The notes under the pieces are model-generated. The model saw only the letters and a program-made list of their open reading frames with translations, did not search any database and was not told the origin of the DNA. The position numbers were made by a program, and so were the translations under genes. From a virus (taxonomy: Duplodnaviria; Heunggongvirae; Uroviricota; Caudoviricetes): DNA of 64,000 nt. This document shows positions 6,564-63,557 of the stretch, in pieces (position 1 is the first letter of the stretch; each line of letters begins with the position of its first letter). The stretch lies in IMG/VR virus record IMGVR_UViG_3300023202_000061; one strand, given 5' to 3'.

Positions 6564-6608
6564 ACATTCCCAGCGAGGGAATCGTCACAACAACCACGGA
6601 GAGTGATT
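6564..6608 (+). promoter_or_regulatory. conserved 45-nt leader (hairpin TTCCCagcgaGGGAA, then GGAGAG RBS) upstream of the NMNAT-Nudix gene
   Basis: near-identical copy at 8700-8744 upstream of the NAMPT gene. Confidence 0.6.
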
Positions 6609-7703: not shown

Positions 7704-7704
7704 T

Positions 7705-8250: not shown

Positions 8251-8351
8251 TGTAAAAGCGGTGGAGTCATCTAACAAAGATGTTCTCAAGTATGTCTTTG
8301 AAAAGGACAATGCTGTAGCTGAGTCGGTACTTTACAAGTATCCAACCTCAT

Positions 8352-12834: not shown

Positions 12835-13464
12835 GTGAAAGAAATGGCGATTGAACCAAACCCATATGATTCAGATGCTTTAGTGGCTGCTAGAGCCTCT
12901 CAAGATGACCCAATCAAACAATACATCATTGTAAGGCGTGATGTTGGTATGTCCTGGCCTAAGGCGCTGGCCCAGGTTGGACATGGTATTGCTATGTTTG
13001 ATGAGGGGTATAACAAACTCCGTGAAAGGTTCAAATCATTCGGACCTCATGGTGGAGATCGTTTTTTAAAGAAAGAGATCACTGACAAGTGGAGAGAAGA
13101 ATCTTTTCGTAAAATTACTTTAGCTGGTAAGACGAAAGATTTCGAGAAGATCAAGAACGATCCTAATCTTAGTGTATTCCTTGTTGTTGATGCTGGCCTT
13201 ACAGAGCTGGAGCCTGGCACTGAAACTGTCATGGTTACTTGGCCAATGCGTGAGTCTAATACGCCCAAAGTAATCAAAAGATTACGAGCGCTTCAAACAG
13301 AACACTTGCTGAAAAAAGAAGAAAAACGTCAAGAGTTCATAAATCTGGTGTCCAACACAGAGCCGACTGATGAGTCAAATATACTTCCTCCTATAGATTT
13401 TAAGAAATCAGATGACAGCACACACGATACCGAAACTGAACCTGGTAAAAAAGAAGAAAAGTAA
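12835..13464 (+). CDS. peptidyl-tRNA hydrolase, PTH2 family
   Basis: QYIIVRRDVGMSWPKALAQVGHGIAMF and VFLVVDAGLTELEPGTETVMV match the PTH2 core motifs. Confidence 0.75.
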   Translation: MKEMAIEPNPYDSDALVAARASQDDPIKQYIIVRRDVGMSWPKALAQVGHGIAMFDEGYNKLRERFKSFGPHGGDRFLKKEITDKWREESFRKITLAGKTKDFEKIKNDPNLSVFLVVDAGLTELEPGTETVMVTWPMRESNTPKVIKRLRALQTEHLLKKEEKRQEFINLVSNTEPTDESNILPPIDFKKSDDSTHDTETEPGKKEEK

Positions 13465-14378: not shown

Positions 14379-15683
14379 ATGCGGAAAAACTATGTACTTG
14401 ATACTAACGTTCTTATACACGATCCACAATCTATCTTCCAGTTCGATGACAATGACTTGTTCATTCCCATCTACGTACTAGAAGAGTTAGATAAGCTCAA
14501 AAACGAGCAATCCCTTCGAGGAAGGAACTCCCGAGAAGCCTGCCGCATCATTGATGACTTCAGGTCCGGAGGGTCCATTTGCGAGGGTGTCCAGGTAGGC
14601 GAAGGCACACTTAGAATATTCGTTCCCAAAGAACGCAAACGCCTAAGCGTTGCCCTTGATATGAACTCTATGGATAACGCCATTCTGCAAAGCGCTGTAG
14701 ATGTACGTGATACTTTCCCCGAGGTACGTACCATCCTTGTTACAATGGATGTGAACCTTCGTATTCGTGCGGAGTCCGTGGGCGTTCAAACGGCTGTTTA
14801 CGAGTCCTTATCAGTGGACCCGTCGCGCATGCCTTCTGGACAAACATCTATTGCAGTTGAAGGCGGGAGCATTGATCAAATGTTCAAGGTAGGTTTTGTT
14901 CACAGACCTGATGATGCTGAATTGTATGATAATCAGTGCGTTACTCTTGAAGAGGGAAACAAAACTGGTCTTGGAAGGTATAATAAAAAGTCCGACAAGA
15001 TTTGCAAACTGAACGTACCAAGGGAGGGTATCATGGGTATCCGTCCTCGAAACAAGGAGCAGCAGTTTGCACTGGACATGCTCCTGGATGACTCTGTAAA
15101 GCTTGTAACTTTGGTTGGTATGGCGGGTACCGGTAAAACACTGCTTGCTGTAGCTGCTGGAATTCAGAAAGCAGTTCATGAAGGCGAGTACTCACGCATT
15201 CTTATTTCACGTCCAGTTGTACCAATGGGTAAGGACTTAGGTTTCTTACCAGGAACATTAGAAGAAAAAATGGATCCATGGATGCAGCCCATCTATGACA
15301 ACCTAGACTTTCTCATGATGACTGGTGGTAAGAAGCGAACCAACGGCATGAACGTGGAACAGCTCTTTGACGAAGACTTGATTCGCGTTGAGCCTTTGAC
15401 CTATATTAGGGGCAGAACTTTACCGAACCAGTTTGTTATTATTGACGAATCCCAGAACCTATCTCCTCACGAGATTAAGACAATCATCACCCGATGTGGT
15501 GAAGGTTCCAAAATCGTCCTCACTGGTGATCCAGACCAAATCGACAACCCGTACATGGACAAGGGCTCTTCTGGCCTTTCCCTTGCAGTAGAGAAGCTAC
15601 GGGGGGATCCGCTTGTAGGACATCTGACTCTCTCCAAAGGAGAGCGTTCAGCATTGGCAAATTTGGCTGCAACTTGCCTCTAG
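14379..15683 (+). CDS. phoH: PhoH-like ATPase with N-terminal PIN domain
   Basis: PIN LDTNVLIHDP; Walker A GMAGTGKTLLAV; Walker B VIIDESQN. Confidence 0.88.
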   Translation: MRKNYVLDTNVLIHDPQSIFQFDDNDLFIPIYVLEELDKLKNEQSLRGRNSREACRIIDDFRSGGSICEGVQVGEGTLRIFVPKERKRLSVALDMNSMDNAILQSAVDVRDTFPEVRTILVTMDVNLRIRAESVGVQTAVYESLSVDPSRMPSGQTSIAVEGGSIDQMFKVGFVHRPDDAELYDNQCVTLEEGNKTGLGRYNKKSDKICKLNVPREGIMGIRPRNKEQQFALDMLLDDSVKLVTLVGMAGTGKTLLAVAAGIQKAVHEGEYSRILISRPVVPMGKDLGFLPGTLEEKMDPWMQPIYDNLDFLMMTGGKKRTNGMNVEQLFDEDLIRVEPLTYIRGRTLPNQFVIIDESQNLSPHEIKTIITRCGEGSKIVLTGDPDQIDNPYMDKGSSGLSLAVEKLRGDPLVGHLTLSKGERSALANLAATCL

Positions 15684-20190: not shown

Positions 20191-20262
20191 TGTAGGATAG
20201 GCAATCGGTACGCCGGCTGCTGTTAACCAGTGACGATGGGGGTTCGAGTCCCTCTCCTACAG
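20191..20262 (+). tRNA. tRNA (anticodon region GCTGTTAACCAG, probably Asn GTT)
   Basis: acceptor TGTAGGA/TCCTACA, T-arm GGGGGTTCGAGTCCCTC; anticodon stem ambiguous. Confidence 0.4.
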
Positions 20263-20354
20263 CGAGAGAAGATATTCGTAGGTTCGAATCCTACCATGGC
20301 ACGACTCGGGAGGGTACGGTCATGTGGCTGGAGGAAACAAGTACTTCTCGTTAT

Positions 20355-22584: not shown

Positions 22585-22709
22585 AGACGCGCATCGAGGA
22601 GTGTTCATCGTTATGGGTGGTGAAACTGAGCATCACGCCGGACCCTAGCGGGTCCGTAGTTCTGGGTTCGAATCCCAGCCTATAACCTACTCTTTGAGTT
22701 TTTCGTCTA
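22585..22709 (+). repeat. A/B cassette 4 (A 22585-22609, B 22691-22709) enclosing a closed tRNA-like element
   Basis: interior 22610-22687 has 8-bp acceptor GTTATGGG/CCTATAAC, two hairpins and T-arm CTGGGTTCGAATCCCAG. Confidence 0.5.
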
Positions 22710-23550: not shown

Positions 23551-23664
23551 GGAACGCGCCTTGTTGAGGTTTCATCTGGTGAAATGGAAAACACAATTGA
23601 CAACAAATCAATCAACTGCGGGTTCGACTCCCGCGATGGTTATACTCCTCTTCGCTCTTTCGTT
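23551..23664 (+). repeat. A/B cassette 5 (A 23551-23576, divergent B 23645-23664) with a degenerate tRNA-like interior
   Basis: interior TGGTGAAATGGAAAACAC...GCGGGTTCGACTCCCGC GATGGTTAT; the D-region resembles tRNA-Leu(CAA) at 31324. Confidence 0.45.
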
Positions 23665-32783: not shown

Positions 32784-32856
32784 AGACTTTGGATCATAAG
32801 TGATCCTTAGATGGGGATCACCACATGAAAGATCTCCATTCAATATTGGAGCTAAA

Positions 32857-34029
32857 ATGACACAAACACACGTAAATATCGGAACCATTGGACACGTTGA
32901 CCACGGAAAGACAACCCTTACCGCTGCGCTAACAAAGGTTCTATCGTCACTGTATGGTGGTAGCTCCATTGATTTTGATCAGATCGATAAGGCTCCTGAA
33001 GAGAAGGAGCGAGGCATTACGATCAATACATCGCATGTTGAGTACAACACTGCCAATCGGCATTATGCTCACATCGATTGTCCTGGTCATGCCGACTACG
33101 TGAAGAACATGATCACTGGAGCATCACAAATGGACGGCGCTATCCTACTAGTTGATGCTTCACAGGGAGCACAGCAGCAGACCCGTGAGCATATCCTTCT
33201 TGCTAAGCAGGTTGGAGTTGAGCAGATGGTAGTCTTCCTTAACAAGATTGATGTTTCTGATGAGGAACTCATCGAGCTTGTAGAGATGGAAGTTACTGAG
33301 ATGCTTGAGTCTCAGGGTTTTGAAGGTACACCAATGGTTAGAGGGAGTGCTCTCAAGGCACTTCAAGCTGATTCTGATGGCCCTGAGTGGCAGTGCATCA
33401 AGGATTTGGCCCAGGCTTTGGACGAACATCTCACAGAGCCTACTCGTGATTATGACTCACCATTCCTCATGCCTATTGAGGATGTTCACTCTATCCCTGG
33501 TAGAGGAACTGTTGTTACCGGACGTGTATCTCGCGGTAAGATAAAGGTAGGAGATAAGATCGAAATCATTGGTTTGAGCAAGGTTGATGACAAGCCTAGA
33601 GAGGTTGTTGTCACTGGAACTCAGGCTTTCCACAAGGACATTCCTGAAGCTGTAGCTGGTCTTAATGTTGGATTGCTCCTTCGTGGTGTAGATAAGGATG
33701 AGGTTGTCCGTGGACAAGTCATCACTGCACCAGGATCCATCAAGCCACACACCAAGGGTAAGGCTGAGATTTATGTTCTCTCTAAGGATGAGGGTGGTCG
33801 TCACACACCATTTTTCAGTGGTTACAAGCCACAGTTCTTCTTTGGTACAACATCTGTAACTGGAGAGGTTTTCCTTGATGGAGAGGGTGCAATGGTTGCT
33901 CCCGGTGGACGTTCGGAGATCAACTTTGGTCTTGATAAGCCAGTTGGTGTCGAGAACGGTATGCGTTTTGCCATTCGTGAGGGTGGTAAGACTGTTGGTG
34001 CTGGAATTGTAACTGATATCTCTGCATAA
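32857..34029 (+). CDS. tuf: translation elongation factor Tu (bacterial type, short N-terminus)
   Basis: [26 protein letters not shown]-motifs; 390 aa; GGAG RBS upstream of ATG at 32857. Confidence 0.9.
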
Positions 34030-35717: not shown

Positions 35718-36037
35718 TGGAAATCGGAGGATACGACATGGTTGTTGAGGGATCCTTTTCGGAGGATCTTCTCATCAACACCATCAAAGAATTTTGGCCC
35801 AAGGCTGTGGTTGATAATGTTCAAGATGAACTTAGCTCCCATAAACACGAAATTTTTGGATACTCTACAAATGATTCAAAGATGGTATGGGATGAGCATG
35901 GGCTAACGGATGAGTTTGCAGATGAAATGATTTACATCATACTTGAAAAAGACCACATCTGTTTAGTTGTAAATTCTCCAGAATCAAAAATAGGTAAGCA
36001 CATTGTTGCTACATTAGGTAAAGAAAATGGCAAATGA
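35714..36037 (+). CDS. hypothetical protein
   Basis: 107-aa ORF. Confidence 0.45.
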   Translation: MMEIGGYDMVVEGSFSEDLLINTIKEFWPKAVVDNVQDELSSHKHEIFGYSTNDSKMVWDEHGLTDEFADEMIYIILEKDHICLVVNSPESKIGKHIVATLGKENGK

Positions 36038-38231
36038 TTATTCAGAAATGAACACGTATCGTCATGATAACGTACACATCACAACAGGTGGAAAGGTTCC
36101 AATCAAGGAGTGGACCGTTGGTGTTGATGTAGAGGATGGTGCTCGTAAGCAGCTTGTTAACACAGCTCAGATGCCATTTATTTTCAGACACATTGCGGCC
36201 ATGCCAGACGTACATTCTGGTAAGGGCTCAACAGTTGGTTCGGTTATCCCAACACACAAGGCTATCGTGCCTGCTTGTGTAGGTGTGGATATTGGATGTG
36301 GAATGATGGCCGTGCAAACAACTATCAAGGGTTCTCAGCTACCAGACAACCTCGCAGATGTTCGTTCTGCTATTGAAGCTGCGGTTCCACATGGTCGTAC
36401 TGCTAACGGTGGTCCAAACGATAGAGGTTCTTGGTCCGATCCACCAAGCACTGTAGAAATCGCTTGGATGGGTCTTGAGCCAAAGTACAAGAAGATTGTA
36501 GAGAAGAATAAGGGTATTGAGTCCAGACATGGCCGAGTTCCTCATTCTCATCTTGGTACTCTTGGAACAGGTAACCACTTTATTGAGATGTGTATTGATG
36601 AATCTGATTCTGTTTGGATCATGCTTCACTCTGGGTCTCGTGGAGTAGGTAACCGTATTGGTTCCTTCTTCATTGATAAGGCTAAGCAAGAGATGGATCG
36701 ATGGTTCATTTCTGGACGTTTGCCAGATATCAATCTAGCATTCCTGCCAGAGGGATCTGATCTCTTCAAGGACTATGTTGAGGCGGTCGGATGGGCTCAG
36801 GACTTTGCTCGTACTAATCGTGAGCAAATGATGAATGCTGTCCTTAAGGCTCTTAAGAAGTGCAAAAAGATTCCTAAGTTTGAGACAACTGAGGTTGCTG
36901 TGAACTGCTTTCGAGGAGATACTAAGTTCATTACATCTACTGGAGTAAAGTCATTAAGTGAAGTTTCAGGATCAACTGTAAAGCTTTTAACAAGCACTGG
37001 TGAGTGGGTATCCGCCCCCATTAAGAGCTTTGGAGATCAAAGCATTGTAAAGCTAACACTAGGCCGTTATGATGTAACAAAAACAATTTATACTACTGCC
37101 GAACATAGATGGTTTGTAGATCCACTTCAAAGGAAGAGGGTTGAAAAACTAACAATGGATCTTGAGCCTGGGGATCGTCTAGCATTTCAACGTGCAAATA
37201 AATCTTTTGATGGTTTTGATCCGCTATTTGAGTATCGAGGTTTTACTTTCGGTGACGGTTCTACTTGTAGCGTAAACACATCTTTAGCTAATTTTTGTGG
37301 GCCAAAAATTCCATTGCTAGATCGATTTAAAAAACTAGGAGTTGGTAATGAGCCACGATCATATGGTGATACAATTCGTGTAACAGGCTTGAGAGGGCAC
37401 TGGAAAAAAACATTTGATGATCTATTTAATGCCTCTCCCAATAAGATTGCAGGCTGGCTAGCTGGGTATTTTGCTGCTGATGGTGATATCGATAAAACAG
37501 GCCGCCCCACTATTACTTCTGCTAGAAAAGAGCACTTAGAAGTTTATAGAGATTTGTGTTGGTTAATTGGAATAGCTACCTATCCCATCAGGGTAACATA
37601 TCGCACAGGATATGGAGAGGAAGAAACCCCTATTTACTTGATGGGTCTAAGTAGAAATGATTTACCAAATGATTTCTTTTTGCGCGAAGATCATCGTGTA
37701 CGTTTGCGAAGCGTTGATGAACGGTTAAATTGGAAAGTTTTATCAGTAGAAACAACAGATTGCATTGATGAAGTGTTCTGTGCTGAGGTTGATGGTACAC
37801 ACTCATTTGTATTGGAAGATGGAATCCTTACTTCGAACTGTCACCACAACTATGTGGAGAAGGAATTCCATTTCGGTAAGTCCGTATGGGTAACTCGTAA
37901 GGGCGCTATTCGTGCTCGCAAGGGTGACCTTGGAATTATCCCAGGATCAATGGGGGCTAAGTCTTTCATCGTTCGTGGACTTGGATGTGAGGATTCTTTC
38001 TGTTCAGCTTCTCACGGAGCAGGGCGTAAGATGAGCCGTACTGAGGCTAAGAAGAGATTTACACTCAAAGATCACCGAGAGGCAACTGAGGGTGTTGAGT
38101 GTAAGAAAGATGCTTCTGTACTCGATGAGACACCACAAGCTTATAAGGACATTGATACCGTCATGGAAGCTCAGAAGGATCTCGTTGAAGTTGTTCATAC
38201 GCTCAAGCAAGTTGTTTGTGTGAAGGGGTAA
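36027..38231 (+). CDS. rtcB: RtcB RNA 3'-phosphate/5'-OH ligase, interrupted by an intein
   Basis: RtcB conserved blocks (MPDVHSGKG, GTGNHF, CHHNY, HGAGR); 734 aa versus about 420 aa expected, excess explained by the intein. Confidence 0.85.
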   Translation: MANDYSEMNTYRHDNVHITTGGKVPIKEWTVGVDVEDGARKQLVNTAQMPFIFRHIAAMPDVHSGKGSTVGSVIPTHKAIVPACVGVDIGCGMMAVQTTIKGSQLPDNLADVRSAIEAAVPHGRTANGGPNDRGSWSDPPSTVEIAWMGLEPKYKKIVEKNKGIESRHGRVPHSHLGTLGTGNHFIEMCIDESDSVWIMLHSGSRGVGNRIGSFFIDKAKQEMDRWFISGRLPDINLAFLPEGSDLFKDYVEAVGWAQDFARTNREQMMNAVLKALKKCKKIPKFETTEVAVNCFRGDTKFITSTGVKSLSEVSGSTVKLLTSTGEWVSAPIKSFGDQSIVKLTLGRYDVTKTIYTTAEHRWFVDPLQRKRVEKLTMDLEPGDRLAFQRANKSFDGFDPLFEYRGFTFGDGSTCSVNTSLANFCGPKIPLLDRFKKLGVGNEPRSYGDTIRVTGLRGHWKKTFDDLFNASPNKIAGWLAGYFAADGDIDKTGRPTITSARKEHLEVYRDLCWLIGIATYPIRVTYRTGYGEEETPIYLMGLSRNDLPNDFFLREDHRVRLRSVDERLNWKVLSVETTDCIDEVFCAEVDGTHSFVLEDGILTSNCHHNYVEKEFHFGKSVWVTRKGAIRARKGDLGIIPGSMGAKSFIVRGLGCEDSFCSASHGAGRKMSRTEAKKRFTLKDHREATEGVECKKDASVLDETPQAYKDIDTVMEAQKDLVEVVHTLKQVVCVKG
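36906..37838 (+). mobile_element. intein (311 aa) with LAGLIDADG homing-endonuclease domain inside rtcB
   Basis: begins CFRGDTKFITSTG, contains LAGYFAADGDI, ends ...ILTSN with +1 Cys of extein motif CHHNY. Confidence 0.75.
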
Positions 38232-38235
38232 TCAG

Positions 38236-38775
38236 TTGTCACAATTAAAGATTGAAGATCACATATCCGTTGTTCCAGACTTTCCTAAGCCTGGTATTGT
38301 CTTTCGAGACATTACCCCTCTTCTGGCGATAGAAGGAGGGCTTAGGAAAGTTTCTGGGGACATCTTCAAAACCTTCGTAGATCTGAATCCAAAAGAGCCT
38401 CTTGATTACATTGCTGGGCTCGATGCCAGAGGATTCATAATAGGTGGAGCAATGTCTGTTGATTTCAACACTCCACTCATCACTGTTCGTAAAGCTGGTA
38501 AACTTCCTCCTCCAGTAATCTCTGTTGAATATGAAAAAGAATACGGCACTGATAAGGTTGAGGTATCTGCCAATCTTAACATTGAGCCTGGCTCTACTGT
38601 TGCTATCGTAGATGATCTTTTAGCCACTGGTGGTACTGCGATTGCTGCGATTCAGCTTTTGAGAAAGCTCAAGCTCAATGTAATGTGTGCTTCATTTGTT
38701 GTCGAGCTAGATATTGGTGGTCGTAACCGAATAGAGGAGCAAGGTGTTGTAGTAACATCATTGTTAAAGTATTGA
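38236..38775 (+). CDS. apt: adenine phosphoribosyltransferase (type I PRTase)
   Basis: PRPP-binding motif VAIVDDLLATGGT. Confidence 0.8.
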   Translation: MSQLKIEDHISVVPDFPKPGIVFRDITPLLAIEGGLRKVSGDIFKTFVDLNPKEPLDYIAGLDARGFIIGGAMSVDFNTPLITVRKAGKLPPPVISVEYEKEYGTDKVEVSANLNIEPGSTVAIVDDLLATGGTAIAAIQLLRKLKLNVMCASFVVELDIGGRNRIEEQGVVVTSLLKY

Positions 38776-39134
38776 TGAAAGGCTCTGGGTTATTGACGGT
38801 ATACGATGAGAAAATCGTTGTAGAGATAGACCCGGACCTTGGTTACTTTTATCGCTCACTGATACCAAAAGCGAAGGGTGTCCATGGAACACGATACCCG
38901 CCACACATAACTGTTGTACGCAAAGAGGCTTTCCCGAAGTTTGTACAGGGCTTTGAGGTATCTTTTGAGTACTCAGTAGATATTCAGCACAATGATGTTT
39001 ACTGGTGGCTACCAGTTCGGTGTCGAGAGCTGAATGAGTTTAGGATTTCTTTAGGTCTACCATGGTGGTCTGAACTTTGCCGTCCACCCGATGGATCAGA
39101 TAATTTTCATATCACAATAGGTAATACCAAATGA
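38772..39134 (+). CDS. 2H-phosphoesterase superfamily protein (LigT / cyclic phosphodiesterase-like)
   Basis: two H-x-T-x motifs (PHITVV and FHITIG) about 80 aa apart. Confidence 0.6.
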   Translation: MMKGSGLLTVYDEKIVVEIDPDLGYFYRSLIPKAKGVHGTRYPPHITVVRKEAFPKFVQGFEVSFEYSVDIQHNDVYWWLPVRCRELNEFRISLGLPWWSELCRPPDGSDNFHITIGNTK

Positions 39135-40701: not shown

Positions 40702-41078
40702 TGTTCAAGATAACCGGAAAGACAACTGATGGAAAGATCGTAGTCAAAGGTGTGTACAAAATGTACGAAACTGATGGTCTTCCTTTAGATGTTATCTTCG
40801 GTTTCCTAAATGAGAACAATGCCATTCCTGATTGGCTTTGGTTTTTCATTGAGGCTACTGAGGCAGGGATGAAACCAGAACGTATCCTCTCTAAGTTGGA
40901 ACATCCCATTGCGGACTCCTATGGACCAGAGATGAGAGATGTTGTTATCAAGAAGCTCAGGTGTTTCTACACCCTTCATGATAAGCGAATGAAGATCAGA
41001 GAAGAAGCATTAGACAAGCTAGCAAAACTAGGACAAGAATTCGATGCAGACGATGGGAAACAAAGTCCTGATAGTTGA
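40701..41078 (+). CDS. hypothetical protein
   Basis: 125-aa ORF. Confidence 0.45.
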   Translation: MFKITGKTTDGKIVVKGVYKMYETDGLPLDVIFGFLNENNAIPDWLWFFIEATEAGMKPERILSKLEHPIADSYGPEMRDVVIKKLRCFYTLHDKRMKIREEALDKLAKLGQEFDADDGKQSPDS

Positions 41079-41520
41079 TGATATGACAGAGAGGCATGAT
41101 GGTTTGTCCAGAGAGTATTCTGGACAAGATATACATCATGCTTACTCTTACAGCGAAGCTGTATCCTATCTTGATAACAATGTTTATGATCTGGTTTGTT
41201 TTGATCATGACCTAAATGACTTTTCTGATGGATCAGAGAAGACAGGTGCATCTGTAGCAAAGTATATGGCCTATGGTGGAATGATTTGTAAGGGTGCGAG
41301 AGTTCATTCTCACAACCCCATTGGAGCCCAAAACATAATATCTATACTTAGATCTGGAGACGTTAGCTCCAATATTTGGTATGAACCATTTGCCATATTT
41401 CCTGGGGCGAATATGGTTGGCCTTAAAGAAAAAGCCTTACAAGAACTTGTAGAAATTACCGAAGAAATGGGCCTTTACGATGATTTGGAAAATCCACTTA
41501 TCAAAAAGGATAAGGAATAA
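41044..41520 (+). CDS. hypothetical protein
   Basis: 158-aa ORF. Confidence 0.45.
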   Translation: MQTMGNKVLIVDDMTERHDGLSREYSGQDIHHAYSYSEAVSYLDNNVYDLVCFDHDLNDFSDGSEKTGASVAKYMAYGGMICKGARVHSHNPIGAQNIISILRSGDVSSNIWYEPFAIFPGANMVGLKEKALQELVEITEEMGLYDDLENPLIKKDKE

Positions 41521-50604: not shown

Positions 50605-50676
50605 GGACCTATAGCTCAGTGGTAGAGCAGAGAGTTCTAAACTCTTTGGTCCAGGGTTCAATTCCCTGTGGGTCCT
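50605..50676 (+). tRNA. suppressor tRNA, anticodon CTA (reads UAG amber)
   Basis: acceptor GGACCTA/TGGGTCC, D-arm GCTCAGTGGTAGAGC, anticodon stem GAGAG/CTCTT, loop TTCTAAA (U33, C34 U35 A36, A37), T-arm CAGGGTTCAATTCCCTG. Confidence 0.65.
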
Positions 50677-50759
50677 CAAATACAATGACCAACATCAAGA
50701 TTCACACCGAAAAGATTAAGGTTTTTATTTCCAAAATCATTTCGGTTTGATATACCTTT

Positions 50760-50897: not shown

Positions 50898-52391
50898 ATG
50901 AATAAAAAAGAACGTCAGGAATATGAAGAGAAGATTCTCAAAGATCTTTCAGTGGAGCGTCAGGGAAAGAAGCTCATCGTACCAGAGGGTGTTGAGCTAA
51001 GCATTGCAGTCAAAGCTTTGCAGCTCAAACAAGAAGAAGAGGAAGAATTCAACGCTGTTTCCTGGGACTTTGAATATGGAGTTGCAGAAGGTATGGTGGC
51101 ATTCCTTCGTACTCTTGAGAAGCAGTTCGGTTTCGTATCTGCTCGCCCCACGCCTACCTTCTTTGGTAATCGCCCTCCTCAGTTCCTTGGAATTGAGACT
51201 GCACCAGGTCATCAAGAGTCTGTTCCTTTCGGACGACTCAATGTTCCTGGTATTAATGGATGGCTGGAACCCACTTACAACATCAAGAAGGGCAAAGTTG
51301 TCTTTAAGATTCATGGTGAGATCAAAGGCAAACACCGTGTAAAGGCAGATGTCATCATTGAGGCTGTGAGAAGGGAGTGCAAAGATAACTCCATCTATAA
51401 AGGTCAGGCAATTGAGACTTCATTCCCCGAGATTGAAGATCTCAACTCTTTGGGAGATACTTTCCCCACCTTTGCTAAGCTCAACAAGATTGATTTGGAT
51501 GACATCATTTTCAGCAAGGTTGTTTCTGACAAGATTATGGTTTCTCTGTTCATGCCTATCATGCACAGTGAACGTTGTCGCAAGCATGAAGTTCCGCTCA
51601 AGCGCGGCATTCTTCTTGAAGGCCCTTACGGTGTTGGTAAGACCCTCACCGCAGCTGCTACGGCAGCCCTTTGTAAGGAAAACAACTGGACTTTCATCTA
51701 TCTAAAGGATGTGACTAAGCTTGCACAGGCGTACTCTTTCGCTGAACAGTATCAGCCTGCCGTCATCTTTGCAGAGGACATCGATCAGATTGTCAAAAAC
51801 AAAGATCCTGAACATCGAGATGATGAAATCAACAACGTGCTCAACGCACTTGATGGAATTGACTCTAAGGGCATTGAGGTTATCACTGTTCTGACCACGA
51901 ACAATGTTCAGAACCTCACCAAGGCAATGCTTCGTCCCGGTCGTTTGGATACCGTTGTTTCGGTTCGTCCCCCAGATGCAGACGCAGCTCAACAATTGGT
52001 TCGTCTATTCGGTGGCGATCTTATTGCAGCGGACGAAGATCTCTCATCTGTTGGAGATATTCTTAAGGGAGAGATTCCCGCTCTCATCAGAGAGGTTGTG
52101 GAGCGCTCCAAGCTTGCAGCAATGCGTCGTGAGCAGGAAGATGAAAACCTCAGAATTGTCGCTGAGGACATCAAGGTTACGGCAGAGGGTATGAAGGATC
52201 ACATGAATCTTCTCAAGAAGAAGGATCCGGATAACCGCTCCGAGCGCGAGAAGGCTGCTGGCGTCATTGCTTCGGCAACAGTTGCTGCTGAGCAGATCAA
52301 GCAAGGCAAGGACATCAAGGAAGTTCTTGAGGATCTTCCCGATCTCAAGAGAGCAACTCAGAAGCCAGACGAGCTGCCTTTCGCTAACTAA
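50898..52391 (+). CDS. AAA+ ATPase (classic AAA family)
   Basis: Walker A GPYGVGKT, Walker B IFAEDID, second region of homology TTNNVQNLTKAMLRPGRLD. Confidence 0.75.
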   Translation: MNKKERQEYEEKILKDLSVERQGKKLIVPEGVELSIAVKALQLKQEEEEEFNAVSWDFEYGVAEGMVAFLRTLEKQFGFVSARPTPTFFGNRPPQFLGIETAPGHQESVPFGRLNVPGINGWLEPTYNIKKGKVVFKIHGEIKGKHRVKADVIIEAVRRECKDNSIYKGQAIETSFPEIEDLNSLGDTFPTFAKLNKIDLDDIIFSKVVSDKIMVSLFMPIMHSERCRKHEVPLKRGILLEGPYGVGKTLTAAATAALCKENNWTFIYLKDVTKLAQAYSFAEQYQPAVIFAEDIDQIVKNKDPEHRDDEINNVLNALDGIDSKGIEVITVLTTNNVQNLTKAMLRPGRLDTVVSVRPPDADAAQQLVRLFGGDLIAADEDLSSVGDILKGEIPALIREVVERSKLAAMRREQEDENLRIVAEDIKVTAEGMKDHMNLLKKKDPDNRSEREKAAGVIASATVAAEQIKQGKDIKEVLEDLPDLKRATQKPDELPFAN

Positions 52392-52525: not shown

Positions 52526-53872
52526 ATGGCTAAAAAATACAGGATTCAATCATCAACCCCTTGGGGAACGAACCCCAATGAAGAAGAGGGCAATGTGGGG
52601 TTCAACCCCAAAAAGATAACTGATAATAAATCTATCTTTTACTCTATAGCCTCAATTGGTTCTATCTCTAGATATGTCGGCATGATTGGAGATCGTCTTC
52701 ACATGTTACCAAAACCAGGAGAGAAGGACTTTCTGAAGAAGTTGAAACTATTTACATTCTTCTGGCAAATATTTCAAAATGCAATCATCTCTTCTCCAAA
52801 GCTATTTGAAAGAAGAGGGATCAGGAAAATAACATTTGGAGCTTCCGACAGTATCATCTACGATCTTATGAGTGAGATTCTAGAACCTGATGAAGTATAC
52901 AGACCAAAGGGAGCTAACTATCCAGGCTCAGCACTTGCCAACCTTTACCGATTTGATCTTGGTGAAGAAAAATATGTTTATTGGTCAATCTATACTCATG
53001 ACCAAAACATCAAATCTGTTCATGTCACATCTGGCGTAAACAAGGATATTATCATTTCATTTTTATGGAAAAGGCTTGGAAAGGTTATTCAGCTTGATAC
53101 ATCAAATGATGATATTGGATATGTTAGAACTGAGCTGCACCAGAAAAAGATATATGGCTCATCCACTGAGATGATTTCTAAGCTCAAGAAGGATTACGAT
53201 CATTTCTATGATAATAAAATGTCTAGAGGGTATCTTCTAATTGGAAAGCCTGGTACTGGTAAAACTGGTATTGTCAATGCTATTGTATCTGAGGCAAAGG
53301 GAAGAGTGTTTGTCATATCTGGTCTTGGCTCTGTGAGTATGATCGAATCTATTGAAAGTCTTTCCACACACATGGAGCCAGACTTCATCATCTTTGATGA
53401 CTGTGATCGTTCTGCCAGCACCTCTCCATATGTTCGTGCGATTCTTAAGCTAATTGAGTCTGTAAAGGAAAAGAACCCTCATACTATGTTCTTGTTTACA
53501 GCCAATACATTCGATGGAATCTTAAGTGATGATGCTGTTACCAGGAAGGGGAGGATTGACCAGATTTATGAAATTCCTGAGCCCGGTCTAGAAGACCGCA
53601 AAGAAATCATTACCAGATATGCCGAGGAGTTTGGTGTTAAACTTTCAGATGAGGATCTGGATAAATGCATTCAAGAGTCTGATGGAATGACCGGCGCAGA
53701 CTTGAAAGAGCTTTGCATCCAGCTACAACGCGCAAGCATTGATGAGTGTTTTGAACAGAATCAGCTAATCGAGACGCTGAAAGAAAAGTACAAACCAGAT
53801 TTGTTTGGTAAGCTCAATGCTTACAACGATGATGATATCATGGATATCGGAACTACAAGAAGGAGAATGTAG
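52526..53872 (+). CDS. AAA+ ATPase (classic AAA family), second paralog
   Basis: Walker A GKPGTGKT, Walker B IIFDDCD, second region of homology with RKGRID. Confidence 0.7.
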   Translation: MAKKYRIQSSTPWGTNPNEEEGNVGFNPKKITDNKSIFYSIASIGSISRYVGMIGDRLHMLPKPGEKDFLKKLKLFTFFWQIFQNAIISSPKLFERRGIRKITFGASDSIIYDLMSEILEPDEVYRPKGANYPGSALANLYRFDLGEEKYVYWSIYTHDQNIKSVHVTSGVNKDIIISFLWKRLGKVIQLDTSNDDIGYVRTELHQKKIYGSSTEMISKLKKDYDHFYDNKMSRGYLLIGKPGTGKTGIVNAIVSEAKGRVFVISGLGSVSMIESIESLSTHMEPDFIIFDDCDRSASTSPYVRAILKLIESVKEKNPHTMFLFTANTFDGILSDDAVTRKGRIDQIYEIPEPGLEDRKEIITRYAEEFGVKLSDEDLDKCIQESDGMTGADLKELCIQLQRASIDECFEQNQLIETLKEKYKPDLFGKLNAYNDDDIMDIGTTRRRM

Positions 53873-57182: not shown

Positions 57183-57676
57183 AAAAGCTAGATAGAAACC
57201 TTGTTGACGCATTAGCAAAGGCAAGGTTTCATTCCAAGAGATCAGCAGGAATATCAGATACAAGATATGACGGATCTAAATGTTCCGTTGATAATGATTT
57301 GAATGCAACTGGTGCCGAATATTTTGCGGCCCAGGAGTACGGACAACCTTTCAATGCAACTATTGGAAAGAGAGGTGATGGAGGTGCAGATTTCCATTTA
57401 CCTTTGTCGGTAGAGGTGGTATGGTTGGGCGTTCAAAAAGACGGGAAACCGAGGGATACAGGACACCTAATAGTTAATCCTGATGAGCCACAAAGATGGG
57501 CTGACATATACATTGTAATCAAAGGCTCTGTAGACGAAGGCTTCGAAGAGGTCGGATGGGTGTCTCATAAGATGCTCACATCATTGCCGAAGAAAGACTT
57601 TGGTTATGGAAAGAAGTTTGCCTGTCATATTTCTGATTTGAAAAAACCACATCTGTTGAAGAACTTGATGAAATGA
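57179..57676 (+). CDS. hypothetical protein
   Basis: 165-aa ORF. Confidence 0.5.
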   Translation: MKKLDRNLVDALAKARFHSKRSAGISDTRYDGSKCSVDNDLNATGAEYFAAQEYGQPFNATIGKRGDGGADFHLPLSVEVVWLGVQKDGKPRDTGHLIVNPDEPQRWADIYIVIKGSVDEGFEEVGWVSHKMLTSLPKKDFGYGKKFACHISDLKKPHLLKNLMK

Positions 57677-58275
57677 ATGAATTTTTCGCCTGGCACAATT
57701 TGATTTTCTATATCTCATTGTTAATCGGCATCTTGCTGATCTTTGTATCAACAATGGGTGTTGGTGATGCTGACGCAGATGTCGATCATGACATAGGTGT
57801 TAATACTGATACGGATTTGTTCATCAGAGTTCTCTCTGTTCTTGGTGTTGGTAAGTGCCCTCTTAGTATCATCATGTTCTCGTTTTTTCTCATCTTTGGA
57901 GGTGCTGGGATCATGTTGAACGTGATCATTCCTCCTGCTATTGCTCTGGTGTCTGTTGCTGGAGCTGGATTTGCAGCACTTACTCTTATCAAAATCGTTG
58001 CCACTACGGTAGCTAAACTGATGCCCAATACAGAATCTTACAATGTCGATAAAGAAAGTTTGAAAGGTTCTTATGCAGAGGTTACCATGAAGGTAAGTTC
58101 TGACTTTGGTATCTGCCATGTCAAAGATAAGTATGGCAGCTTACACAAGATCAACGCCCGTTCTTATCAGAAGGATGGCGAAGAAGAAAAGACATTCCCC
58201 GTTGGAATGGAAGTTCTCATCATTGACCGCAAAGATGACGTATACTACGTCGAAGACCCACAGGAGATGAAGTAA
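57673..58275 (+). CDS. NfeD-like membrane protein (partner of SPFH proteins)
   Basis: N-terminal TM helices plus C-terminal beta-rich soluble domain, immediately upstream of the flotillin-like gene. Confidence 0.55.
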   Translation: MNEFFAWHNLIFYISLLIGILLIFVSTMGVGDADADVDHDIGVNTDTDLFIRVLSVLGVGKCPLSIIMFSFFLIFGGAGIMLNVIIPPAIALVSVAGAGFAALTLIKIVATTVAKLMPNTESYNVDKESLKGSYAEVTMKVSSDFGICHVKDKYGSLHKINARSYQKDGEEEKTFPVGMEVLIIDRKDDVYYVEDPQEMK

Positions 58276-60063
58276 ATGGTAGTGTTATTGTTTCTGGCTG
58301 CAATCGTGTTGATTGGAGCCCCTATCGCAATGAACGCGATTGGTATGGAGATCTCTTCGGTCTCTCAGATCCTCATGACTGGTGCGGGAATTTTCCTGCT
58401 ATTGGTTGGCTCAATCATTGTTGTTGTTACGAAACTCTATCAGCGTGCCCGTGCTAACGAAGCTTTCGTTCGTACCGGTATGGGTGGTGTGCGTATCATC
58501 CGTGATGGCGGTGCTCTGGTTATTCCAGTCATCCATGAGTTTCTCAAGATTTCTCTTCAAACATTGAAGCTTGAGGTTGTTCGTGAGCATTCTGAAGCTC
58601 TCATTACACAAGATAATCTTCGTGCAGATATCGGAGCTGAATTCTTCGTTCGTGTTGAGCCTAATGATGAATCAATTCTTCAGGCAGCACGATCTCTTGG
58701 TGACAAGATGATGGATGTTGTTCAGGTTCGAACAGCAGTTGAAGACAAGCTCATCTCAGCACTTCGTGCAGTTGCAGCTACAAAGACTCTGACTCAGCTT
58801 CACACTGATCGTGAAGGGTTTGTGGAAGAAGTTACCAAAGCTGTAAACAACGATCTCAAAGAGAATGGTCTTACTCTTGAATCTGTTACGATTTCAAAGC
58901 TTGACCAGACAAGTGTTTCATCCTTGAAGGATGACAACGTCTTCGACGCTCAGGGTAAGCGAACCATCGCAGAAATCACTCAGAAGAATATGACTGAGAC
59001 GAACCGCCTTCAGCGTGCTGGTGAGCAAGCTCGTAAGGAGCAAGATGTTGAAACTGAAAAGGCTGTTCTTACTCTTGATCAAGAGAAAAAGAATGCCGAA
59101 GCACGCCAGCGAGCGGAGATTGCTAAGGTAGAGGCTGAGCAGCAGAGAGAGGCTACTGAGAAGTCCATCGAGGCACAGAAGGCAATCGAACTTGCAGAGG
59201 TTGAGAAACAACAGCGAGTTGCAGTTGCTGGCATCGAAAAGGATAAGGCAGCAAACATTGCTAACGAAGCTAAGCTTACAGCAATTGCTCTTGCATCTTC
59301 CGAGAAGGCAACTCAAGAAGCTGAGCTTGCTAAGGCTCAGGCGATGCGAGAGTCTGAGATGCAGAAGATCAAGACTGTCGAGATCGAAGCTGCAGCAAAT
59401 CGTGATAAGGCTAAGTCTGTGATTGAAGCTCAGGCACAGGCAGAGCAAAACTATGTTGTTGCTCAGCGCCAGGCTGACGCTCAGGCTTATCAGGTACAAA
59501 AGGATGCTGAGGCTCGTAAGGCAGCAGCTGATGCAGATGCAGAGGCAACAACCAAGAAAGCAGCTGCAGAAGCTTCTGCTCTCAAGGCTAGGGCAGATGG
59601 CGATCAGGCGGTCCAAATGGTTCCTGTTCAGGTTGAACGTGAACGAGTCAAGATTGACCAAGATCGCATTGAGCATGTTGTGAAGCCTGAACTTGAGGCT
59701 CGTGAGAAGTCAGGTAAGGTTGCTCAGGATTTCGAAATTGCGAAGCTCAAAGTTGAGGCCGAGATGCAGGTCCAAATCGAAACTGCCCGAGCAATGGCAT
59801 CTATTGGTTCCAAGGTTCAGATGAACCTCTATGGTACTCCCGAAAATGCTGCAGATATGCTCAATGGCATTGTGAAGGGTCAGAACTGGGCAGAGTCTAT
59901 CAATGCCTTCAAGAACACTATTGATCCTTCTATCATTGAAGCTGCTAGAGATGCGGCTGAAGGAGCCGCATCAATGTTGGGAGGGTCACCTCGCAAGATT
60001 GATGACGAAGGCTCTGAGAGGCCCTCAGAGGGCTCTGACAAGAAGAGTGAAGATAAGAAGTAA
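58276..60063 (+). CDS. SPFH/Band-7 flotillin-like protein (YqiK/FloA-like)
   Basis: N-terminal TM, SPFH core (ANEAFVRTGMGG...), very long EA-rich coiled coil, acidic tail. Confidence 0.7.
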   Translation: MVVLLFLAAIVLIGAPIAMNAIGMEISSVSQILMTGAGIFLLLVGSIIVVVTKLYQRARANEAFVRTGMGGVRIIRDGGALVIPVIHEFLKISLQTLKLEVVREHSEALITQDNLRADIGAEFFVRVEPNDESILQAARSLGDKMMDVVQVRTAVEDKLISALRAVAATKTLTQLHTDREGFVEEVTKAVNNDLKENGLTLESVTISKLDQTSVSSLKDDNVFDAQGKRTIAEITQKNMTETNRLQRAGEQARKEQDVETEKAVLTLDQEKKNAEARQRAEIAKVEAEQQREATEKSIEAQKAIELAEVEKQQRVAVAGIEKDKAANIANEAKLTAIALASSEKATQEAELAKAQAMRESEMQKIKTVEIEAAANRDKAKSVIEAQAQAEQNYVVAQRQADAQAYQVQKDAEARKAAADADAEATTKKAAAEASALKARADGDQAVQMVPVQVERERVKIDQDRIEHVVKPELEAREKSGKVAQDFEIAKLKVEAEMQVQIETARAMASIGSKVQMNLYGTPENAADMLNGIVKGQNWAESINAFKNTIDPSIIEAARDAAEGAASMLGGSPRKIDDEGSERPSEGSDKKSEDKK

Positions 60064-60716: not shown

Positions 60717-60789
60717 GCCGCTTTAGCTCAATTGGTAGAGCACCGGTTTTGTAAACCGAAGGTTGTGGGTTCAAGTCCCTCATGCGGCT
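60717..60789 (+). tRNA. tRNA-Thr(TGT), second copy
   Basis: acceptor GCCGCTT/ATGCGGC (one mismatch), D-arm GCTCAATTGGTAGAGC, loop TTTGTAA. Confidence 0.6.
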
Positions 60790-60877
60790 CCCTTTCCACT
60801 GTGAAAGGTGGTGGAGGGCAAAGGTGAAAAGCCTAGCCCCTAGTAGTTCCAAGTCTGCTCTATCAAAACTTGGATAC

Positions 60878-61255
60878 GGGGATGAAATGGATTCGACATG
60901 GAGAAAGAAACAAACTTGATCATGTAGGCAGAGTTAGAGCTGGCTTAATCAATTCTAGCAACGTTAATTGCAAACGATAACGCATTCGCTCCTGCCGCTC
61001 TCGCAGCGTAAGGCGCTGTCTCTTGAAGAGGGTGTTTGAGTATTCAAGAGGCATTAACCACACAAACTGGACTACTGGACTTCGGTCACAGATCGCCTCG
61101 AAAAGGTAGTTGAGATAATTAGAGGGTGACATTCCAAGAATAGATTGGATGACGGTTACCAAAGGTAACAACCTGCTGGTAGGTATCCAGATAAACATGT
61201 GAGCGAGAGTTTGATAGACATCTTCGTGGACCCGGCTTCGATGCCGGCATCTCCA
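60878..61255 (+). ncRNA. ssrA: tmRNA (ssrA), tag peptide ANDNAFAPAALAA
   Basis: 5' GGGGATGAAATGGATTCGACATGG matches the tmRNA consensus GGGGNUGAUUCUGGAUUCGAC; internal GCAAACGATAACGCATTCGCTCCTGCCGCTCTCGCAGCGTAA; 3' T-arm CCGGCTTCGATGCCGG and acceptor CATCTCC-A pairing with the 5' GGGGATG. Confidence 0.75.
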
Positions 61256-61293
61256 CAAAAACTCTCAACATCTCCATACCTGTTGATATATCA

Positions 61294-61899
61294 GTGGGTA
61301 TGGTTATGTTGAGATGTACTAATTGCGCCTCCCCTTTTGAAAAGAACAACTCAGAATATAAAAGGCAAATTAAGAAAGGTAGAGAAAACTTTTTCTGTTC
61401 AAGATCGTGTTCTATGAAGTTCACAAATACACGAAGAGAAAAAGAAGCAATTCTAAATGGTAAAGACCCATACGAACAGGCTAAAAAAAATATTGTTGAT
61501 TGGATGGGTAACAAAAAAGGACAACGAAAGAAAGACTCCTTAACACCGTTTAGATGGTTTGTACTCAGAGCAAAATTCAGAAGTAAACAATGCAAGAGAA
61601 AAAATTGTGGTGTAACTCCTGAGTTTTTGAAGCAATTATTTGATAGTCAAAATGGTATTTGCCCAATTACGGGATGGAATCTTGTATTACCAGATAGTAC
61701 TAGTAAGGGTTGGTCAAATGGACCCTCTCCACAAAACGCGAGTCTTGACAGGATTGATCCATCTATGGGATACATAGAAACTAACGTTAGATTTGTAAGC
61801 CTGATGGCCAATCATGCTAGAAATTCATTTGATGACAATACACTAATTGATTTTTGTGAATCAGTTGTGAAAAACAAGAAAGAAAGACATACAATATGA
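61294..61899 (+). CDS. HNH homing endonuclease (HNH_3-type)
   Basis: C-terminal SLDRIDPSMGYIETNVRFV...N..K; directly downstream of ssrA. Confidence 0.7.
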   Translation: MGMVMLRCTNCASPFEKNNSEYKRQIKKGRENFFCSRSCSMKFTNTRREKEAILNGKDPYEQAKKNIVDWMGNKKGQRKKDSLTPFRWFVLRAKFRSKQCKRKNCGVTPEFLKQLFDSQNGICPITGWNLVLPDSTSKGWSNGPSPQNASLDRIDPSMGYIETNVRFVSLMANHARNSFDDNTLIDFCESVVKNKKERHTI

Positions 61900-63557
61900 A
61901 TTGGGGATTTGCTAAGCCAGCAACTAAACCAGAACCTACATCAAGAAATGAGAGCGATGGAACTCTCATTGATATGCTCAAGAGTGCTCGCGGCAGAATC
62001 GCAGAGCTTGAAGGGTTCTTCACGAAGATGGAGAACTCATCCCTCTCTATCCATGGATATGTTATCAAAGTTGATGGAGACAAGGTTCTTGTTGGATCCT
62101 CTCAAGGTGTCTTTGAGGGTGTAAGAAACCCAATGGCAAAGGACAAGAAAGAGCTGAACTTAGAGTTGGGTCAAGCTGTCCGAGCCAATCGTGAAAATGG
62201 AATTGTCATCTCAAACTCTTTAGAGATTGATGCTGGTAAGGTTTACATTGTCCAATCATGTGACATGGAACAAGGATGGGTTGAGATTGATGCTGAGGGA
62301 TCTCCTCATCGCCTCAGTACATGCAGCCTTGAAAAGGTTGAAGATGGAGACAGGATTCTTGTTGATCCATCTCTCACCATTGCTCTGAGGAACTACGGCA
62401 AAGACCGTAAGCGCTTTGCATTCAAAGGTGAGACCGGTGTTTCCTGGGATGACATTGGTGGTCTTCATATTGCAAAGGAAGCTCTTCGTGAAGCAATTGA
62501 GCTTCCCGCAAAGCACGCTCAGATCTTCAAAGCATATGGGAAGAAGATCTCTAAAGGTGTTATGATGTATGGTCCCACTGGTTGTGGTAAGACCATGCTT
62601 GCAAAAGCAGCTGCAACTTCATTGGCTGACACTTTCGGTGCAGAAGCCAAAGAGACAGGGTTCATCTACGTCAAGGGACCAGAGCTTCTTGACAAATGGG
62701 TGGGCAACACCGAGGCAATGATTCGTGGTCTGTTCGCACAGGCACGAGATCACCACAAGAAGAATGGATACCCAGCTATCCTTTTCATTGATGAGGCTGA
62801 TGCTCTTCTTGGTAAGAGAGGTGGCGCAAAGGGTGAGCGTGCGACCTCTCTATCAAGCACCATTGTGCCTCAATTCCTGAGTGAAATGGATGGCCTTGAA
62901 GAGTCCGGTGCGTTTGTTCTTCTTGCAACGAATCGCCCTGACATCTTGGATCCTGCGGTGGTTCGTGATGGGCGTATTGATCGTAAGGTTCATGTAACAC
63001 GTCCTGATCAATCATCTGTCCGAGACATCCTCAAGATCAATCTCAAGAACAAGCCAATCTGTGGTGAGCTTGATCAATTGGTAGAGTATGCTGCCTCTGA
63101 GATTTGTAGCACTGAGCATAAGCTGTATGATGTCCAGTACACAAAGAGTGGTAAGACAGAAGTTGCTGAGATGTTCTACCGAGACTTGGTCAATGGTGCT
63201 ATGATTGCCGGTATTATTGAGCAGGCAACTGGTGAGGCAATGAATCGAGACATTGCAAGTGGTAATCCCCATCCAACTGGCATCAAAGAAGAAGACCTTC
63301 GTGAAGCTATCATGAAGTCACTTCGTGAGAACTCAGATACCAACCATGATATTGCTTTGGAAGAGTTTGAGATCTCTATTGATGGTAAGATCAAGGGTAT
63401 TAGGAAAGCTACCGAAGATGTAAAGGAAGCAGTTCCAGATCTTCCTCCCAAAATCGAAACACAACAGAAGACATCAGATATTAAGGAGATACAGGATGAG
63501 CAATTGGTGGGGGCTTCTCAAGAAGCCGCAGAAGCAGTCCAAGCCTGGGGTGGTTGA
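61896..63557 (+). CDS. AAA+ ATPase (classic AAA, CDC48/proteasomal-ATPase-like), third paralog
   Basis: Walker A GPTGCGKT, Walker B ILFIDEAD, second region of homology ATNRPDILDPAVVRDGRIDRK. Confidence 0.75.
   Translation: MNWGFAKPATKPEPTSRNESDGTLIDMLKSARGRIAELEGFFTKMENSSLSIHGYVIKVDGDKVLVGSSQGVFEGVRNPMAKDKKELNLELGQAVRANRENGIVISNSLEIDAGKVYIVQSCDMEQGWVEIDAEGSPHRLSTCSLEKVEDGDRILVDPSLTIALRNYGKDRKRFAFKGETGVSWDDIGGLHIAKEALREAIELPAKHAQIFKAYGKKISKGVMMYGPTGCGKTMLAKAAATSLADTFGAEAKETGFIYVKGPELLDKWVGNTEAMIRGLFAQARDHHKKNGYPAILFIDEADALLGKRGGAKGERATSLSSTIVPQFLSEMDGLEESGAFVLLATNRPDILDPAVVRDGRIDRKVHVTRPDQSSVRDILKINLKNKPICGELDQLVEYAASEICSTEHKLYDVQYTKSGKTEVAEMFYRDLVNGAMIAGIIEQATGEAMNRDIASGNPHPTGIKEEDLREAIMKSLRENSDTNHDIALEEFEISIDGKIKGIRKATEDVKEAVPDLPPKIETQQKTSDIKEIQDEQLVGASQEAAEAVQAWGG

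Follow-up and report, generated by a model that had tools for sequence, protein, structure and literature searches.

The 64-kb stretch of DNA that we analysed, hereafter the window, comes from an uncultured virus of the Caudoviricetes (IMG/VR record IMGVR_UViG_3300023202_000061) and carries a gene for transfer-messenger RNA (tmRNA, ssrA) at positions 60878-61255 of the plus strand. It is a one-piece gene, complete from its 5' G to the discriminator A, and its fold is conserved, with covariation, at the same place in two distant relatives. From the sequence, we consider it likely that this is a functional tmRNA gene of the standard one-piece type, belonging to a large uncultured phage. Throughout the text, L002, L006 and similar labels denote loci of relatives that were compared with the window.

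Two programs called the gene. ARAGORN placed a one-piece tmRNA at 60878-61256, with the tag ANDNAFAPAALAA, and labelled it 'tmRNA' and not 'tmRNA*', the permuted form, which means that its topology is collinear. The Rfam family RF00023, whose gathering score is 47, matched 60878-61258 (+) with 95.6 bits (E 5.3e-36), and the match spanned model positions 1-374 of 374, without truncation. This score is far above chance and about twice the threshold. The ends given above follow from both calls and from a helix check, and neither ARAGORN nor Rfam showed a further tmRNA within the window. A phage-borne one-piece tmRNA with this tag had already been proposed in an initial annotation, which pointed to covariance models and to the pseudoknots as the means of checking it. 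Both checks came out in its favour, and the letters are as it described them: the 5' end GGGGATGAAATGGATTCGACATGG, the tag frame, the T-arm and the acceptor strand CATCTCC followed by A at 61248-61255. It also noted only short antisense reading frames over the gene; the two minus-strand open reading frames (ORFs) found there, 60920-61258 and 61119-61595, are only mechanical ones.

Fold of the tmRNA and its conservation in relatives

Pairing was scored by explicit helix checks on each sequence separately, for the window tmRNA as well as for those of L002 and L006. The 5' strand of the acceptor stem, GGGGAUG (60878-60884), pairs with CAUCUCC (61248-61254) at 7 of 7 positions, which agrees with the pairing initially proposed. 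This stem contains G3:U70, the identity pair for alanine, which is likewise present in the L002 and L006 tmRNAs, and it is followed by the discriminator A at 61255. Helix P2 is made up of three segments, namely CAUGGAGA/UCUUCGUG, CAAACUU/GAGUUUG and CAUGU/ACAUG. The classical H-type pseudoknot PK1 (60925-60959) is placed between P2 and the resume codon; its stem S1 joins 60925-60929 with 60943-60947 (UAGGC/GCUUA, 5/5 pairs) and its stem S2 joins 60933-60939 with 60953-60959 (GUUAGAG/UUCUAGC, 7/7). The tag reading frame (60970-61011, +) follows the spacer AACGUUAAUU and begins with the resume codon GCA; its 13 codons and stop read GCA AAC GAT AAC GCA TTC GCT CCT GCC GCT CTC GCA GCG TAA, with the stop at 61009-61011. 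The encoded tag, ANDNAFAPAALAA, ends in ALAA. PK2 (61017-61067) consists of an S1 of 11 pairs out of 11 (61017-61027 with 61043-61053) and an S2 of five out of five (61034-61038 with 61063-61067). The PK3/PK4 region (61068-61194) contains an insertion relative to L002 and L006 and is longer than in both of them, and the T-arm CCGGC-UUCGAU-GCCGG (61232-61247) has a stem of 5 bp and a loop of 6 nt.

Two distant relatives keep a tmRNA at the same locus, in the order tRNA-Thr(UGU), tmRNA and then an ARC/Mpa-like AAA+ ATPase, and their flanking ATPases are 51-53% identical to that of the window. One of them, L002, lies on a 453,626-bp ENA contig, where a Band_7 gene, tRNA-Thr(tgt), the tmRNA (9076-9431), a 111-aa ORF and the ATPase follow one another; its tmRNA has the tag ANDNAALALAA and scores 116.6 bits with RF00023. 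The other one, L006/L007/L010/L017 (hereafter L006), lies on a 169,027-bp contig of IMG/VR, with tRNA-Thr(tgt), the tmRNA (5190-5551), two small ORFs and the ATPase; here the tag is ANDNADLAIAA and the score 98.5 bits. ARAGORN missed the L006 tmRNA, probably owing to a G7-A mismatch in its acceptor stem. With such a score in Rfam, this copy indicates that phage tmRNAs are undercounted by surveys that use ARAGORN only.

In a single MAFFT alignment, the window tmRNA is 53-54% identical to those of L002 and L006, and the latter two are 69% identical to each other. At these distances the three molecules still retain base pairing at nearly all positions of P1, P2a-c, the two stems of PK1, PK2 and the T-stem, with many double substitutions. 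For instance, the first segment of P2 is CAUGGAGA/UCUUCGUG, CAGGGUGU/AUGUUCUG and CGUGGCUA/UAGUCGCG in the three tmRNAs. Stem S2 of PK1 also covaries, with 8/8 pairs in L002 and in L006 and differing sequences, and so does S2 of PK2, which is GUUUG/CAAAC in the window, GUCUA/UAGAC in L002 and GUCUU/AGGAC in L006. Moreover, the three tags all begin with ANDNA and end with [LI]AA. Helices that are kept by compensatory changes at 53-69% identity point to an RNA under selection for its fold and not to a decaying capture. This argues for a functional RNA that would be selected and inherited within the phage lineage, and against a recent capture from a host.

The search for further copies at the locus covered six more relatives of the ATPase (L004/L005, L008, L009 and L025-L027), in whose fetched flanks no tmRNA was found; L024 was left out of this comparison since its upstream sequence was too short. 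A scan of metagenomes with the P2 motif AGATAARCATGTGAGCRAG, which is specific to the clade, gave 13 loci, one of them with a tmRNA that is identical to the L006 copy, and a search of IMG/VR with the ATPase for related loci found no relative. The first 24 nucleotides of the tmRNA matched only L001 8236-8618, on a 344-kb IMG/VR contig, where an unrelated permuted tmRNA of the two-piece type with a 28-aa tag is called; beyond this 24-mer it shares nothing with the window tmRNA. At L006 3294-3444 the tRNA model also matched a stretch of 151 nt (37.3 bits), perhaps a tRNA gene that contains an insertion or intron.

Neighbourhood of the gene and other features of the window

The tRNA-Thr(UGU) gene of the window is located at 60717-60791 (+), 86 nt upstream of the tmRNA, and was called both by ARAGORN and by the Rfam tRNA model (66.7 bits). 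Just upstream of this pair, at 57673-60063 (+), a YqiJ/NfeD-like membrane protein and a 595-aa SPFH protein (Band 7, flotillin-like) are encoded; the 453-kb relative shows synteny for the SPFH gene (L002 6897-8666).

On the 3' side, the tmRNA is followed by a strong hairpin (61261-61317, +), an inverted repeat with arms of 26 nt and a folding energy of -28.9 kcal/mol (z -7.4), which was reached by none of 200 shuffles. The hairpin contains the candidate start codons of the next gene, at 61294, 61300 and 61306, and nothing comparable was found 3' of the L002 and L006 tmRNAs. It could be a barrier for 3' processing or termination, or a translational brake on the endonuclease that is encoded next. 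Its 5' arm contains, at 61269-61276, a second copy of the terminal 8 nt of the tmRNA (CATCTCCA, 61248-61255), 21 nt downstream of the first. This 8-mer has only 5 occurrences in the window on both strands, and its repetition could be the footprint of the endonuclease insertion or a matter of chance.

The next gene is a free-standing ORF of 201 aa (61294-61899, +), whose first possible start, GTG at 61294, lies 39 nt past the discriminator base of the tmRNA, the distance given initially. It had been taken for an HNH_3 endonuclease. The endonuclease part of this name is supported by the PHROG profiles 3322 ('endonuclease', 1.3e-21), 1035 ('endonuclease VII', 1.8e-10) and 3118 ('HNH endonuclease', 3e-7), but neither Pfam HNH nor HNH_3 (PF01844/PF13392) matched at E<=0.01, nor even at E<=10. 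The protein has a Cys-rich, zinc-finger-like segment at its N-terminus and a nuclease-like region at its C-terminus; a search of PDB sequences gave only weak matches to zinc fingers, and ORFs of crAss-like phages, mostly annotated as endonucleases, are 34-40% identical to it. We predict that the product is a phage endonuclease, possibly similar to endonuclease VII. Since the window, L002 and L006 have mutually unrelated ORFs in the space that separates tmRNA and ATPase, the endonuclease together with the hairpin is a lineage-specific insertion into a variable slot. In three other relatives, in whose fetched flanks no tmRNA was found, a PDDEXK_5 nuclease gene lies on the opposite strand in the neighbourhood of the tRNA and the ATPase (L005 181-849, L025 3239-3919, L026 2461-3111), and this region seems to collect mobile nuclease genes.

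The ARC/Mpa-like AAA+ ATPase of the window is encoded at 61896-63557 (+). It matches Pfam AAA at 1.6e-32 and the proteasome ATPase model TIGR03689 (pup_AAA) with 286.8 bits at residues 21-491, nearly its whole length, a score below the cutoff of 504.75. This is the last of three AAA+ ATPases inside 13 kb (50898-52391, 52526-53872 and 61896-63557, all +), and it is the one that shows the full ARC/Mpa layout; the first one matches phrog_10440 at 5e-115.

Regarding translation, ARAGORN and Rfam detected 44 tRNA genes between 19.4 and 60.8 kb, that is, within 42 kb, and two more HNH ORFs lie inside this array. A full-length EF-Tu gene (32800-34029, +) scores 584 bits against the NCBIfam equivalog cutoff of 522 and contains the three Pfam EF-Tu domains; this factor brings the complex of Ala-tmRNA and SmpB to the ribosome. 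There is also a peptidyl-tRNA hydrolase of the Pth2 type (12835-13464, +; Pfam 4e-17), with a function in ribosome and tRNA recycling. An RtcB RNA ligase is split by an intein with a LAGLIDADG domain, and near it we found a 2H phosphoesterase ('Swiss Army Knife') domain and a cREC cyclic-phosphate-processing receiver domain (36027-38231, 38772-39134 and 41044-41520 for the three, all +), which together look like a set for RNA repair.

Other observations concern decoding. The tRNA with the highest score in the window (69.5 bits; 50605-50677, +) has the anticodon CUA and would thus be an amber suppressor, which ARAGORN labels 'Pyl'. It may be a sign of TAG recoding in part of the genome; for comparison, the tmRNA frame ends with TAA. 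ARAGORN also reported two tRNA-like genes with anticodons of four bases (gtta, tagc) and a tRNA-Cys with the anticodon ACA (20191-20263, 22611-22687 and 23570-23642, +), which could be unusual decoders or artefacts of the prediction. Away from translation, there is a set for NAD salvage at 6558-10187 (+), composed of an NMNAT-Nudix fusion, a NADAR domain protein and NAMPT, which could rebuild NAD+ during infection, and a PIN-PhoH fusion (PIN_4 + PhoH; 14379-15683, +), a predicted RNA-directed nuclease/ATPase.

Proposed role and rival explanations

In trans-translation, tmRNA is charged with alanine by way of G3:U70, delivered by EF-Tu and SmpB to an empty A site and read from its resume codon; after the tag has been added up to its stop codon, the tagged protein is degraded. 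Apart from the caveats on the T-loop and on CCA that are discussed below, the sequence elements for these steps are all present; SmpB would have to be supplied by the host or by a part of the genome outside the window. Transcription of the window tmRNA would accompany or directly follow that of tRNA-Thr(UGU). The 5' end of the tmRNA would be matured as in a tRNA, and its 3' end would be trimmed and completed with CCA by the CCA-adding enzyme. Charged with alanine by the host AlaRS through G3:U70, it would enter ribosomes stalled on broken or stop-less mRNAs, with the help of SmpB, most likely that of the host, and of EF-Tu, for which the phage copy could be used. The ribosome would then switch to the tmRNA frame, add (A)ANDNAFAPAALAA and terminate at UAA, which would free it and leave a peptide with a C-terminal ALAA degron for the AAA+ proteases of the host. 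The likely benefit is that ribosomes would be kept available during infection, when host mRNA is degraded, the expression of host ssrA may fall and defence nucleases may cut mRNAs or tRNAs. Such a benefit fits the tool-kit of 44 tRNAs, EF-Tu, Pth2 and RtcB.

Several observations count against a functional phage tmRNA. The PK3/PK4 region is poorly aligned to RF00023, with low posterior probability, and the posterior of the whole Rfam alignment averages only 0.68. The T-loop, UUCGAU, has 6 nt and not the canonical 7, which both L002 and L006 have, and its closing pair is C:G instead of G53:C61; thus the T-arm seen in the initial annotation holds for the stem but not for a canonical loop. CCA is not encoded, as the genome reads A-CAA (the discriminator and then CAA), and therefore its enzymatic addition would be needed; the L002 tmRNA has an encoded CCA and the L006 one has not. 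A promoter-like site was sought between tRNA-Thr and the tmRNA and none was found. Co-transcription with 5' processing of the tRNA type is for this reason the simplest reading, and the two genes probably share one transcript. Furthermore, in L004/L005, L025 and L026, which are close to L006, no tmRNA is present in the flanks that were fetched, which reach 2.4-5 kb upstream from the ATPase, although they retain tRNA-Thr and/or the ATPase; the tmRNA is either dispensable there or located elsewhere in those genomes. In a neighbour-joining tree of the ATPases, these loci and the tmRNA-bearing genomes form one clade, which is most simply read as descent from an ancestor with the tmRNA and its later loss or relocation in some members. 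Finally, Pfam scans of the window identified no capsid, portal or terminase gene, and its identity as a phage rests on relatives and gene content.

SmpB was not found in the window either. Three SmpB sequences used as tblastn queries (that of E. coli was shown to be exact by its IMG/VR matches) gave no match, an SmpB HMM against all six frames gave nothing below E = 1, and SmpB was absent among the Pfam matches of about 60 ORFs. A search of IMG/VR with an SmpB alignment yielded only prophage ends of the E. coli type that abut the host smpB, and it is silent on this phage clade. The claim that the phage manages ribosome rescue by itself consequently goes too far. The tmRNA most likely depends on the SmpB, the AlaRS and the CCA-adding enzyme of the host. 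This lack is not an argument against its identity as a tmRNA, because a host SmpB would suffice.

The unusual T-loop with its closing pair, the CCA that is not encoded and the failure to find SmpB could also be explained by a crippled tmRNA captured from a host, which would be decaying or would act as a decoy, titrating the SmpB or AlaRS of the host and inhibiting trans-translation. There is a precedent in mycobacteriophage DS6A, which has little beyond a tRNA-like domain, and such molecules strongly inhibit tmRNA (PMC4131195). Nevertheless, a decoy would need the tRNA-like domain only, whereas here the mRNA-like domain, PK1, PK2 and the whole of P2 are kept by compensatory changes in three lineages that are 53-69% identical, and all three tmRNAs have an open tag frame with degron and stop; we regard this explanation as unlikely. 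We give next to no probability to a second kind of host remnant, in which the element would be an attP-type piece of host ssrA that either served an integration at the host tmRNA gene or was left behind by one. The 8-nt repeat CATCTCCA of the tmRNA 3' end and the E. coli prophage ends in IMG/VR that abut smpB/ssrA would suit it, and many temperate elements are known to integrate into the 3' end of ssrA. However, the gene is not a 3' fragment but complete, with both the 5' GGGG and the discriminator base, Pfam and PHROG showed no integrase nearby, and at BLAST level there is no similarity to bacterial tmRNAs beyond the tag region. The full-length match to RF00023 effectively refutes it.

The other rivals accept a working tmRNA and differ on its owner or on the reader of its tag. 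If the window belonged to a megaplasmid or to an odd cellular replicon, the tmRNA would simply be the ssrA of that replicon. The structural phage genes missing from the window and the lack of a DNA match in the INPHARED phage collection would agree with this, and some large putative plasmids bear analogous suites of translation genes (PMC7162821). We nevertheless give a non-phage replicon a very low probability. The 44 tRNAs in 42 kb are interspersed with HNH genes and an intein, there are strong PHROG matches such as that to phrog_10440 (5e-115), almost all genes lie on one strand, and cellular core genes are absent from the window. The closest annotated relatives of its AAA+ proteins are phages, including the uncultured genomes of 595 kb and 462 kb (LR756511.1 and LR756500.1) that were deposited as 'uncultured phage, metagenomic'. 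As for the ATPase at 61896-63557, a large protein collection holds an identical copy on a 138,643-bp JGI contig and further relatives with 44-57% identity, many of which lie on contigs of 121-498 kb; the source contig measures at least 138 kb. A phage tail gene is located 3 kb away from the ATPase of L025, and the tmRNA-bearing 169-kb relative (L006) is listed in IMG/VR as a viral genome. With viral or tail-bearing relatives, a tRNA array, homing-type nucleases and genes in one orientation, the window is by far best read as part of a large phage, and the phage setting assumed initially is thereby supported indirectly, with relatives on contigs of 169-498 kb. The last rival keeps the phage as owner, and supposes that the tag is read by the adjacent ARC/Mpa-like ATPase and not by the host ClpXP, in a tagging and unfolding module of the phage. 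The tmRNA does lie upstream of this ATPase in three deeply diverged genomes, and the ATPase aligns end to end with TIGR03689. But the ATPase persists in relatives without a nearby tmRNA, unrelated ORFs separate both genes in each lineage, no protease partner was found in the window, and shared descent alone can explain the adjacency; we hold such a module to be as improbable as a non-phage replicon. The wider idea of a tagging pathway run by the phage itself, in which its own EF-Tu would deliver the tmRNA, stalled or selected chains would receive an ANDNA...LAA tag and the downstream ATPase would recognise it, is likewise highly doubtful. If it were true, the phage rather than the host would control both the rescue of ribosomes and what becomes of the tagged proteins. 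A functional tmRNA, most likely working with host SmpB and with host proteases, is the explanation that we favour.

Relation to known tmRNAs

The window tmRNA resembles the bacterial one-piece tmRNA, as represented by SsrA of E. coli, in the G3:U70 acceptor stem, the T-arm, the long P2, PK1, the GCA resume codon and PK2. The E. coli tag is ANDENYALAA, and the window tag also starts with AND and ends with ALAA. The differences are that the window gene is carried by a phage, has a T-loop of 6 nt and no encoded CCA, and has no smpB adjacent to it.

In order to find similar tags, we scanned 185,579 species genomes for tags starting with ANDNA and ending with AA and a stop; particular codons were required, so other lineages may be missed. 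The scan gave 67 loci, and the one-piece tmRNAs among them were almost all from Myxococcota (Polyangiaceae, Polyangiales, Nannocystis and Kofleriaceae), with tags such as ANDNAIALAA, ANDNALALAA, ANDNATVALAA and ANDNANFALAA; the pattern for Polyangiaceae, Nannocystis and Kofleriaceae can be written as ANDNA[ILV]ALAA, and the three phage tags fit it. The remaining ones were one from Halanaerobiaceae and, for the rest, two-piece tmRNAs of alphaproteobacteria or chance matches. In the same MAFFT alignment as before, global identity of the phage tmRNAs was 53-56% to Polyangiaceae tmRNAs, as high as among the phage tmRNAs, and 45-46% to the E. coli ssrA. On the other hand, BLAST of the phage tmRNAs against the 67 bacterial loci found similarity confined to the tag region, and G+C is 43-49% in the phage tmRNAs vs 53-62% in those of Myxococcota. 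A recent capture of the tmRNA from a host was rejected on account of this BLAST result. The tag resemblance points to Myxococcota (Polyangia) as a possible host or donor, which we offer as a lead only, and it fits the idea that a tag must suit the host proteases. The tag family gives a lead on the host that can be tested, and if Myxococcota were the hosts, these would be the first huge phages assigned to that phylum.

Phage tmRNA genes are already known from jumbo and huge phages, and the window gene is one more example; the knowledge of how tmRNA works is unchanged by it. What is new here is the clade with its conserved locus, the evidence from covariation, the ANDNA tag family with its resemblance to Myxococcota and the endonuclease as a later insertion. 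It is a well-supported addition to the short list of phage tmRNAs, most of which have been reported on the basis of an ARAGORN call and nothing else. That the RNA was kept under selection for its structure throughout a deep phage lineage is also the best argument from sequence only that phage tmRNAs are used and are not passenger DNA, and the locus of tRNA-Thr, tmRNA, variable nuclease slot and AAA+ gene can be used for finding and comparing members of the clade.

Among the phage tmRNAs known are those of eight mycobacteriophages of the cluster C type and of Bacillus phage G (PMC4131195; PMC12484599). These carriers have jumbo genomes of the myovirus type, and the role of their tmRNA in infection is a putative one (PMC4131195; PMC12484599). 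The ssrA genes of phage G and of Bxz1, Cali and Catera (Hudson, Lau & Williams 2014, PMC4131195; PMC12484599) are like the window gene in being full-length phage tmRNAs accompanied by a large set of tRNAs. However, the phage G tag is AKLNITNNELQVA (PMC12484599) vs ANDNAFAPAALAA in the window, the hosts belong to different phyla, and no sequence similarity was detected. A further parallel is found in the huge phages, from which tmRNAs, SmpB and EF-Tu were reported by Al-Shayeb et al. 2020 (PMC7162821). The window differs from them in that phage SmpB was reported there (PMC7162821) and not found here, and in having no DNA match to any INPHARED phage. Nevertheless, both cases present the same combination, namely a one-piece tmRNA in a very large uncultured phage, together with dozens of tRNAs, EF-Tu and other translation genes (PMC7162821).

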